Shown one piece after another: positions 46,938 through 49,900 of a stretch of DNA of 64,000 bases (the stretch's first letter is position 1; each line of letters starts with the position of its first letter). The stretch comes from Oscillospiraceae bacterium (lineage in GTDB: Bacteria; Bacillota; Clostridia; Oscillospirales; Ruminococcaceae). The notes below the pieces were generated by a model. The model was not told where the DNA came from, ran no database searches, and worked only from the letters and a program-made list of their open reading frames with translations. The stretch lies in the NCBI GenBank assembly GCA_009780025.1, contig WRAV01000002.1, forward strand, positions 38,126-102,125. The letters are read 5' to 3'. A program made the position numbers and the translations under genes.

Positions 46938-49900
46938 CTATTGCACCAGGGCAACGTTTTTCTCCCCAAGCAGCAACCCAAGCTCTCGGGTGAGAACATC
47001 GTTGGGTGCGACCCAGTAGGTCTTTGGGGTGCGCAGCAGCTTTTTTGCGTCGCTGTAGTAGAAGTATACAGGCAGCGGCCCTTCAAAGACAGCCAGCAGG
47101 TTTTGGGCGCGGCCTACCAGCTCGCTCTCCTGCCCGGGGAATTTGAGGTAAAGACCCTGTTTGCCGGCGGCGGCACGCCCTCCTCCCTGAGCGGTGGCGG
47201 GAGTGGGCACGGGCGGGCGGGGATGGAACCCCACCCCTACACTTGCGGAATCTTGGCATTCATTCGTAAGATCGGGCTTCCATGCTCGACCATCTTTCCC
47301 CGCGTCTTCCGGCGCAAGAATCTCTTCACAGACCAGCTGGGCAGCGCCCTCTTCGGTTTCTTTTATCCGGCCCCGTACAGCCACTACCTGGCCCTCCGCA
47401 AGCATAGAGGCGCTCTGGGCGTACGTCTTGGGGAAGATGATTATTTCGATTGTGCCGGTTTTGTCTTCAAGCTGGGCAAATGCCATCATCTCGTTGCTCT
47501 TGGTGGTTTTGAGCTTTCTGCCCGCCAGTATGCCCAGCAGGAGCGCTCGCTCGCCATCCGCGCGCTTGTTTTGGTGGAGTTGCGCTATAGGTATAGCACC
47601 GATTTTGCCGGCAGTCTCTTCGTGGGCTTCAAGCGGGTGCCCGGAAAGATAGAGCCCGGTGGTTTCCTTTTCGTAGGCCAGCCGGATCTGGGGCGGGTGT
47701 TCGGGCAGGTCGGGCAAGACATATCCCGCGCTCTCGCCCTTTTTGGCTGTCGAGAACAAGTCCATCTGCCCGCTTATGTTGTTTTGCGCGTCCTTTTCAA
47801 TGTCCTCGTAGAGAGCCGGGAAACCCTTTTCCATCTGCTGGCGGGTATGACCAAAGCTGTCCAACGCACCGCAACGGATAAGGTTTTCTATCCCGCGCTT
47901 GCCCAGCTCCTTGCCCTGCATTCGGCGCAAAAAGTCCTCTAAGTTCAGGAATTTGCCGGCCCGCTCCCGCTCGGCGCAAAGCTCCTGGATAGCCTTCCGG
48001 CCCAGATTTTTGACAGCCAGCAGCCCAAAGCGAATGCTTTCGCCCACCACCGTAAAGCTGTGCTCGCTCTCGTTTATGTCAGGGGGGAGCACCTTCAAGC
48101 CTAGCCGCTTGCACTCGCCGATGTAGTCGATTACTTTGTCGGTGCTGTCAAGTATGCTGGTGAGCAGGGCGGCCATATACTCCTTGGGGTAGTGGCATTT
48201 GAGGTAAGCGGTCTGGTAGCTTAGCATGGCGTATGCCGCCGCGTGGCTCTTGTTGAAGGCGTATGAGGCAAACGAGCTCATCTGCTCGAAGATGTCGTTG
48301 GCGACCGGCTCTGGTACACCGCCCCGCACGCAGCCGACGCAGCCTTGGGGCCCTTCCTCTCCATGGATGAAGGCGCGGCGCTCTTTTTCCATAACATCGT
48401 GCTTCTTTTTGCTCATGGCGCGGCGGACAAGGTCGGCCCGGCCATAGGAGTATCCGGCCAGCTCCCGGCAGATTTGCATCACCTGCTCTTGGTAGACGAT
48501 ACAGCCGTAGGTCACCTTTAGTATGGGCTCGAGCATGGGGTGTGGGTAGCGCACCTCCCCAGGGTTGTGGCGGCCATGTATATACCGTGGGATCGACTCC
48601 ATCGGCCCTGGGCGATAGAGTGAGATAACGGCGATCAAGTCTTCAAAGTGGTCGGGTTTTAGCTGGGTAAGCACGTTCTTCATGCCTTGAGATTCAAACT
48701 GGAAGACGCCGTTTGTCTGCCCACGACCCAGCATCTCGAAAACCGGGCGATCGTCTAGAGAGATACTCTCTACCTCAAAGTCGGGCTGGTGGCGCCTTAT
48801 CATTGTGCGGGAATCTTTTATCACGGTCAGGTTGCGCAGACCCAAAAAGTCCATCTTGAGCAGGCCGAGTTCCTCTAGGATACCCATGGGGTACTGGGTG
48901 ACAATAGAGCCGTCATTGCTCTGGAGTGGCACATATACATCGGCAGACTCGCGGGTGATAACCACTCCTGCCGCATGGGTAGAGGCGTGGCGAACCATAC
49001 CTTCGATCTTGCGAGCCATATCGATTAGTTCTTTATTTTGTGGGTCGGACTGGTAGAGCGCACCAAACTCGGGCGAGACCTGCAGCGCGCGCTCGATCGT
49101 CATCCCCAGCTCGAACGGTATGCTTTTGGCGATGACGTCCACTTGTTGGTAGGTCATTCCCAGCGCGCGGCCCACATCCCGGACAGAGCCGCGGGCGGCC
49201 ATGGTGCCGAATGTAATAATCTGTGCCACATGATCGGAGCCGTATTTGTTGGTTACATATTCGATGACCTCTTGCCGGCGCTCGTAGCAGAAGTCTATGT
49301 CGAAGTCGGGCATCGAGATGCGCTCCGGGTTAAGGAAGTGCTCGAAGAGCAGGCCGTACTTAATGGGGTCGATCCCGGTAATGCCCGAGCAAAAAGCTGC
49401 CAGGCTGCCCGCCCCCGAGCCCCTACCCGGCCCCACCGATATTCCCTGCTCTTTGGCATAGCGGATAAAGTCCCAAACGATTAAAAAGTAGTCGGTGTAG
49501 CCCATCTTCTCGATGACACCCAGCTCGAAGTCGAGGCGGTCGGTAACTTCAGGTCCGGGGCTATCACCGTAGTGAGTGTGCAGCCCCTCTAGGCATAGAG
49601 CGCGGAAATACTCGGCGTTATCGGCCCCTTCCGGCGCAGTGAAGTGTGGCAGCTTGGTCTCGCCGAATGTAAAGTCCAGATTGCAGCGCTCGGCAATCTT
49701 GGCGGTATTGGCCACCGCACCGGGATAGTCGGCGAACAGCGCGTCCATTTCTTCCGGGCTTTTGAGGTAGAACTCGTCGGTGACGAACTCCATGTCGCTG
49801 CCGGAGTCCACTGTGCGGTTGGTCTGGATGCAGACAAGCACGTTCTGCATCTTGGAGTCCTCCCGGGCTATGTAGTGGGAGTCGTTGGTGGCAGCCATTG

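Follow-up and report, generated by a model that had tools for sequence, protein, structure and literature searches.

How does a dispersed palindromic repeat come to be translated as part of a DNA polymerase? This question is raised by the dnaE gene on contig WRAV01000002.1 of an Oscillospiraceae bacterium (assembly GCA_009780025.1, a metagenome-assembled genome (MAG) of 2.06 Mb in 72 contigs with 53 % G+C, labelled G000 here), where we analysed a stretch of 64,000 nt (C2:38126-102125) that is referred to below as the window. An initial annotation of the window had claimed that a 78 bp doublet of repetitive extragenic palindromic (REP) units is inserted in frame, as 26 codons, in this gene, and the sequence of the doublet, its start on a codon boundary and its position at residues 1070-1095 of the protein were all borne out by our analysis (Table 1). 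It is highly probable, in our view, that the segment is a REPIN-like doublet (REPIN, REP doublet forming a hairpin) that was inserted in frame in dnaE of this Oscillospiraceae lineage, with a Y1 transposase resembling the REP-associated tyrosine transposases (RAYTs) as the likeliest mobiliser.

Read on the minus strand, the dnaE element consists of a 26 nt hairpin unit ending in TTAC, a 25 nt spacer and a 27 nt unit starting with GTAG. Its first base falls on a codon boundary of the dnaE open reading frame (ORF), and the peptide encoded by the 78 nt is GRAWKPDLTNECQDSASVGVGFHPRP. A search for repeats within the window paired the element with an intergenic doublet, the two forming 78 nt arms with 77 % complementarity, and returned a third, single unit at 21282-21310. 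The intergenic twin, with the same layout and the hexamer TGCCAA at an equal offset in its spacer, had been proposed in the initial annotation and is present as described; the two spacers share only about 44 % identity.

The units of this family follow a consensus of GTAG, an 8 bp stem, a TTCCAT loop and the returning stem, and are 26-27 nt long. With up to five substitutions allowed, about 98 units were found on 40-plus contigs (18 inverted pairs and 62 singlets), so that the genome-wide search for copies proposed in the initial annotation has returned a dispersed and mostly intergenic family. The 26 nt consensus has 63 matches at two or fewer mismatches in the 2.06 Mb genome and the reversed pattern has none, and the repeat is therefore more than a chance resemblance. 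Doublets occur in two geometries: inward, with the GTAG heads towards a spacer of 16-25 nt, and outward, with spacers of 23-159 nt. The dnaE copy, its intergenic twin and one copy on contig C4 are all inward, have 25 nt spacers and combine the same two unit subtypes. On a wider scale, GTAG followed by a hairpin occurs at 279 sites in the genome, compared with 63-73 sites for three control tetranucleotides, and by sequence they fall into at least six families, which agrees with a separate early note that had claimed several REP types in the window. None of the REP sites has a match in Rfam. With GTAG-footed, GC-rich palindromes, dispersed copies and inverted doublets that can be folded as one hairpin, the elements are REP/REPIN sequences in the standard sense. 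They do not fit the description of miniature inverted-repeat transposable elements: no direct repeats flank the dnaE insert or a second insert in a U32 peptidase gene (see below), and the ends are GTAG-headed hairpins, not terminal inverted repeats of the insertion sequence type. Nor do they belong to the Rickettsia palindromic elements (RPEs), since the units are GTAG-tagged and the likeness is functional only. Two inward doublets elsewhere in the genome, C4:30720-30796 and C31:18278-18350, share their flanks (..cagac/..caggc before and gccagaca after), which hints at a longer composite element or at a preferred target.

The host gene is intact. Its product matches the Pfam domains PHP, pol3_alpha, finger, HHH_6 and OB fold (residues 992-1060) in this order, followed by a weak C-terminal-domain match at residues 1139-1178, and it scores 1654 bits against the NCBIfam equivalog NF005298 (cut-off 1260). 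Because the OB fold and the weak C-terminal-domain match bracket residues 1070-1095, the insert lies in the linker between these two domains, as had been claimed in the initial annotation. The same location is seen in an AlphaFold2 model of the protein (19 sequences; mean predicted local distance difference test score (pLDDT) of 84), in which the final OB strand ends at residue 1061, the C-terminal domain begins at residue 1115 and residues 1070-1112 have a pLDDT below 50; according to this model, the start of the insert coincides exactly with the start of the predicted disordered linker. The protein had also been described as the essential replicative polymerase. While its identity as DnaE is firm, a PolC protein is encoded in the same genome (TIGR01405, 1545 bits, cut-off 1043), and by the precedent of Bacillus subtilis DnaE is here probably the partner polymerase of PolC rather than the main replicase; going by the same precedent, the gene is probably essential. 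A search of the genome revealed no second dnaE in the assembly.

To examine the proposal that the segment was gained by insertion, we built an alignment of DnaE with 28 orthologs taken at genus, family and order level, to which the most similar members of a collection of 5.8 billion proteins were added. The 26-residue peptide is absent from all 28 orthologs and from the closest proteins of the collection, and the linkers of the nearest orthologs, which are 76-78 % identical, are about 18-21 aa shorter. The closest DnaE in the collection is 61 % identical over residues 960-1186 and about 78 % identical overall, and the 90 % cluster of the protein contains as its sole member a variant with a single amino acid difference, in which the same insert is present. 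The nearest dnaE relatives with searched genomes lack the REP family as well. The initial annotation had named orthologs that carry the peptide in the absence of the REP family as the observation that would speak against an insertion; no such ortholog was found in this alignment, and its central claim, namely that a member of a REP family is inserted in frame in dnaE, agrees with the absence of the peptide from every ortholog, including relatives without the family. The segment that follows the OB fold is hypervariable in both length and sequence across all aligned orthologs and, because the linker varies in this way among relatives, the alignment gap cannot be read as a clean empty site.

The dnaE copy is a decayed fossil and not an active element, because one of its two GTAG heads is mutated, one stem is mismatched and its fold is no better than that of shuffled sequence. 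Folded as single-stranded DNA it reaches -10.8 kcal/mol (z -0.55 compared with shuffled sequence), and the intergenic twin forms one long hairpin of -26.2 kcal/mol (z -6.2).

As to the mobiliser, PF01797 (Y1 transposase) matches two loci in the genome, and tblastn adds an intact paralog on contig C47 and several fragments. The gene on contig C17 scores 33.7 bits against PF01797, which is above the cut-off, and its best NCBIfam match is NF047646 (REP_Tyr_transpos) with 65 bits, which is under the cut-off of 80. This gene holds both unit types of the dnaE-doublet family, in frame and with no mismatches, the encoded peptides being VGAGFHPRP on the N-terminal side of the HuH motif and AVGHGSPTLQ on its C-terminal side; in DnaE, Unit B is read in the identical frame and yields VGVGFHPRP. 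The initial annotation had suggested a search for a RAYT gene flanked by these repeats. A RAYT-like gene with the same REP sequence does exist, on C17; however, its cognate REPs are located within its reading frame and were not detected in its flanks. In the paralogs on C47 and C24 the same two positions are occupied by hairpins that belong to two further REP families of the genome, and in the RAYT-like genes the GTAG hairpin before the HuH motif is on the coding strand and the one after it on the opposite strand. Two further RAYT-like genes are found in G006, a second species of the genus, and each of the five genes has a distinct hairpin pair that matches a dispersed family of its own genome; the hairpins of the G006 genes are dispersed in that genome in 27 and 12 copies and are absent from the genome studied here. 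In an alignment of 21 homologs both hairpin-encoded segments are conserved, with GTAG and CTAC lying within conserved I-V-G and L-Q codons, and among three distant metagenome homologs a GTAG hairpin is present at the second in-gene position in all three and at both positions in two. The motifs of the RAYT-like protein P0024 (NHVH, FWQ and YIDQNP) fit the Y-x3-NP signature of class 2 and, compared by motif only, are near those of subclass 2.4 (see below). In P0136, a distant RAYT-like homolog from a gut metagenome contig (L079:10001-10672), the hairpin-encoded peptide after the HuH motif is present in about five tandem copies as GGRGDPIT repeats, which suggests that REP units can multiply within the transposase gene itself. 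Two other relationships between the repeats and genes were considered and rejected. The family does not stem from dnaE itself, because the copy there is decayed and because distant genomes have the hairpins conserved within their RAYT-like genes. Nor are the outward doublets with 74-159 nt spacers internally deleted RAYT genes, as tblastn detected RAYT fragments only on C17, C47, C24, C36, C29 and C60, and none at these doublets.

The distribution of repeats and transposases in the genus bears on the same point. The TTCCAT-loop family was found in two of 15 genomes, the present one and G006 (160 matches), and RAYT-like genes were detected in the same two. Because the REP family and the RAYT-like genes are confined to the same two genomes, mobilisation by a RAYT is supported, though not proven. 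In G006, the assembly of which is 91 % complete and consists of 220 contigs, the 160 copies are chiefly outward doublets with 24 nt spacers. With a family found in two of 15 genomes of the genus, the suggestion in the initial annotation that the case illustrates a route of protein insertion in Clostridia was too broad in scope.

How a palindrome of this kind can remain in frame is best seen from the other REP inserts that we verified (Table 1). The REP units contain no stop codon in five of the six frames, stops coming mainly from the spacer, and therefore an open frame across a doublet is not improbable. The initial annotation had explained the frame by a unit length that is a multiple of three; this is not a property of the element, as the units are 26-27 nt long and other in-frame inserts differ in length, with 42 nt in dnaE of G006 and about 30-84 nt in the genes for a GH94 enzyme and PurL. 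Since the lengths differ among the cases, the in-frame state is a matter of survivorship, and most likely it reflects selection on which insertions survive. The 14 aa insertion in DnaE of G006 is absent from 14 aligned orthologs. All hosts of these parallel inserts are long multidomain proteins.

Table 1. Location of the REP elements, their host genes and the RAYT-like genes. Coordinates without a prefix are positions in the window.
Feature	Location	Strand	Remarks
REP doublet, 78 nt	47214-47291	-	Read in frame as DnaE residues 1070-1095; inward: hairpin-CTAC, 25 nt spacer, GTAG-hairpin
Unit A	47266-47291	-	Type-1 unit in reverse-complement orientation; three mismatches to the consensus (GTAG head changed to GTAA and two in the stem)
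Spacer, 25 nt	47241-47265	-	Loosely conserved across the three doublets with 25 nt spacers
Unit B	47214-47240	-	Type-2 unit: GTAG, 8 bp stem, TTCCAT loop; one mismatch
Intergenic twin doublet	55069-55146	+	No mismatches in either unit; long REPIN-type hairpin
Single type-2 unit, same family	21283-21308	-	No mismatches
dnaE (DNA polymerase III alpha, 1186 aa)	46938-50498	-	Intact; Pfam, NF005298
RAYT-like gene	C17:27925-28449 (= L001:1336-1863)		Outside the window; intact, 175 aa; own REP pair in frame
RAYT-like paralog	C47:3576-4121		Outside the window; own REP pair in frame
RAYT-like paralog	C24:16500-17040		Outside the window; own REP pair in frame
dnaE of G006	L014:2344-2369		Independent in-frame REP unit of a different family; clean 14 aa (42 nt) insertion EGVGDAPPRVPSAA in a finger-domain loop
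U32 peptidase, this genome	C47:1957-2037 (L048)		Outward doublet inside the catalytic domain; clean gap in 10 orthologs
PurL, this genome	C22:16119-16148 (L047)		Insert of about 28 aa just before the glutaminase domain; gapped in orthologs
GH94 enzyme, 2543 aa, this genome	C18:31121-31199 and C18:32144-32174 (L046)		Two inserts, both gapped in orthologs

The TTCCAT-loop family itself is predominantly extragenic, and its members could be verified as intragenic in two genes only, as the doublet in dnaE and as the pair of units in the RAYT-like gene on C17. Among the remaining candidates for intragenic REPs in the genome, a doublet near the N terminus of an amidohydrolase (C38:13954-14038) stands as an observation. 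Several other candidates were discarded: the units assigned to a GTPase (C11) and to PrmC (C27) sit upstream of the likely true starts, a 547 aa ORF on C49 is the antisense shadow of a gene whose stop is about 29 nt from the unit, and several other long ORFs have no Pfam support. The window also contains a 79 nt direct repeat (53087-53165 and 60131-60209; 77 % identical), which is unrelated to the REPs, has a hairpin-like, GGAGG-containing start and may represent either a leader common to both sites or the beginning of a small gene.

According to the reading that we favour, two inverted GTAG-headed hairpins of one family inserted into dnaE where the OB fold gives way to the disordered linker that leads to the C-terminal domain. 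The insertion could have persisted only because the frame was kept, no stop codon was introduced and the segment is tolerant of any length and sequence. The doublet is now read as 26 extra linker residues, and substitutions acquired since have removed one GTAG head and disrupted the pairing of the palindrome. The mobiliser would be the RAYT-like Y1 (HUH) transposase of the genome, which, by analogy to TnpA-REP of Escherichia coli and to IS200/IS605, would act on single-stranded hairpin DNA. Mobilisation by a RAYT, the functionality of the protein and the neutrality of the added peptide are our inferences.

Several points weigh against this reading or limit it. To our knowledge, RAYT-driven REP transposition has never been demonstrated in vivo in any organism. 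Neither of the RAYT-like genes detected in G006 carries the TTCCAT-loop hairpin, despite the 160 copies of the family in that genome; a gene cognate to this family may have been lost, may be missing from the assembly or may not be required. The closest DnaE proteins available for comparison are only 76-78 % identical to the one studied here, and with a hypervariable linker there is no exact empty site, so that the boundaries of the insertion are taken from the repeat alone. Finally, the three assemblies in which the insert is seen (see below) probably stem from one population and would then attest to reproducibility across assemblers rather than to independent strains.

A further-reaching proposal is that dnaE is a preferred landing site for RAYT-mobilised REPs, beyond mere tolerance, and, relatedly, that the master copy of each REP family resides in the conserved codons of a RAYT-like gene. 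This proposal is made because both REP-bearing species of the genus have dnaE insertions, which are independent and involve different families and different sites, and because the same pattern is evident in a survey by Di Nocera, De Gregorio and Rocco (2013, BMC Genomics 14:522; PMC3733652). We regard it as rather unlikely. Should the RAYT-like genes indeed be master copies, REP-derived peptides in host proteins would be literal pieces of transposase coding sequence.

An origin independent of a transposase is also conceivable, though improbable: either recombination or gene conversion involving a second REP copy, or template switching promoted by the hairpins at a stalled replication fork, could have brought the doublet into dnaE. 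The lack of a target-site duplication or a conserved flank at the dnaE and U32 inserts would be consistent with such an origin, as would the first two points raised above, that is, the unproven status of RAYT-driven transposition in vivo and the many family copies in G006 alongside no detected cognate gene. However, gene conversion requires prior homology in the linker, and there is none in any ortholog; moreover, the REP families and the RAYT-like genes co-occur perfectly in the genus, each in two of 15 genomes, and the hairpins embedded in the RAYT-like genes co-vary with the dispersed families. There is likewise little probability that the insert has been kept as useful and is not merely tolerated, either because it tunes the length of the linker or because REPs are biologically connected with genes of replication and repair. 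Intragenic REPs have been reported to be in excess in genes of this class (Di Nocera et al., 2013; PMC3733652), and the dnaE insertions at different sites in both REP-bearing genomes of the genus would fit this idea. In contrast, the length and sequence of the linker vary freely among relatives, the insert is predicted to be disordered and its hairpin has decayed; the U32, PurL and GH94 hosts are simply long multidomain proteins, which fits the product of target size and tolerance, and the dnaE cases were ascertained since dnaE is easily recognised. That the insert is an assembly artefact, namely a repeat-induced chimera or a collapsed join of the kind that a MAG of 72 contigs might contain, is very improbable, as the repeat of 78 nt is below typical read length, dnaE is collinear and in frame on both flanks and matches its orthologs, the dnaE copy has four private substitutions and was thus not pasted from another locus, and the identical insert recurs in two additional assembly records (JGI 3300010369 and ENA ERZ27257297), which encode the 1186 aa protein with one residue changed elsewhere and differ from the window by a single nucleotide polymorphism over 23.5 kb around dnaE.

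In-frame REPs in dnaE and dnaE2 genes and inside tnpA-REP genes have been published before, and while the present case is well supported its novelty is modest. Di Nocera and colleagues described GTAG-tagged REPs that are located wholly inside ORFs, as singlets and, in many cases, as dimers, and that contribute 20-30 aa; genes for replication and repair, among them dnaE2 genes and dnaE of Rickettsia conorii, stood out as hosts (PMC3733652). These authors proposed that a flexible linker or loop can accommodate such an insert, and they noted that TAG stop codons can be provided by the GTAG heads (PMC3733652). The elements described here are likewise GTAG-headed, GC-rich hairpins, mostly extragenic with some in frame; they differ in being found in an Oscillospiraceae MAG, in having an 8 bp stem and a TTCCAT loop, and in that the dnaE copy is demonstrably decayed. 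Neither Firmicutes nor Clostridia are mentioned in the 2013 survey (PMC3733652), and the present case is thus an example, from a phylum unmentioned there, of a core replication protein that gained a peptide from selfish DNA. With at least four further ortholog-verified cases, the same genome offers a natural series on site tolerance and on the rate at which a palindrome decays once it is translated. The case also adds to the independent REP insertions in dnaE, through which the published suspicion of a connection between REPs and replication or repair genes becomes statistically testable. Taken alone, it leaves the current understanding unchanged.

The initial annotation had stated that palindromic insertions in coding regions are best known from Rickettsia. 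This statement understates earlier knowledge, namely the GTAG-tagged intragenic REPs in dnaE2 genes and in Rickettsia dnaE reported in 2013 (PMC3733652). RPEs are selfish palindromes that are inserted in frame in genes that are still functional, and they add peptides at the protein surface (Ogata et al., 2000, 2002, as cited in PMC3733652). The RPE families covered by the 2013 classification, RPE-4 and RPE-6, are CGTC-tagged there, as opposed to the GTAG tag of the units described here (PMC3733652). RPE hosts are obligate intracellular Alphaproteobacteria, unlike the present host. In addition, we know of no association between RPEs and RAYTs.

A close likeness is also seen to the REP/REPIN-RAYT systems, such as TnpA-REP (yafM) of E. 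coli and the REPINs of Pseudomonas, which share with the present system the GTAG at the foot of the hairpin and the presence of several families per genome (PMC6006769, PMC8266576). As in E. coli, where Y and Z units are distinguished, the inverted doublets are composed of two unit subtypes (PMC6006769, PMC8266576), and as in REP/REPIN-RAYT systems each family has its own Y1/HUH transposase gene at low copy number. Unlike in these systems, the REPs cognate to the C17 gene were found within its reading frame and not in its flanks. A literature search on RAYTs in Firmicutes returned no relevant paper. REPs inside a tnpA-REP gene that leave the frame unbroken have been described for TnpA-REP subclass 2.4 by Quentin, Siguier, Chandler and Fichant (2018), and the in-gene REPs of the RAYT-like genes are therefore partly anticipated by that work (PMC6006769). 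The motifs of this subclass are NH[IFV]H for HuH, WQ for W and YIxNNP for Y, the class 2 signature being Y-x3-NP (PMC6006769), and similar motifs are seen in P0024, while REPs that do not disrupt the frame are present in the RAYT-like genes studied here as well. What differs is that the in-gene REPs here have fixed positions, one on either side of the HuH motif, which are conserved in the 21 aligned homologs, and these conserved positions, with hairpins that co-vary with the dispersed families, may be the sole nuance that the present study adds to the literature.

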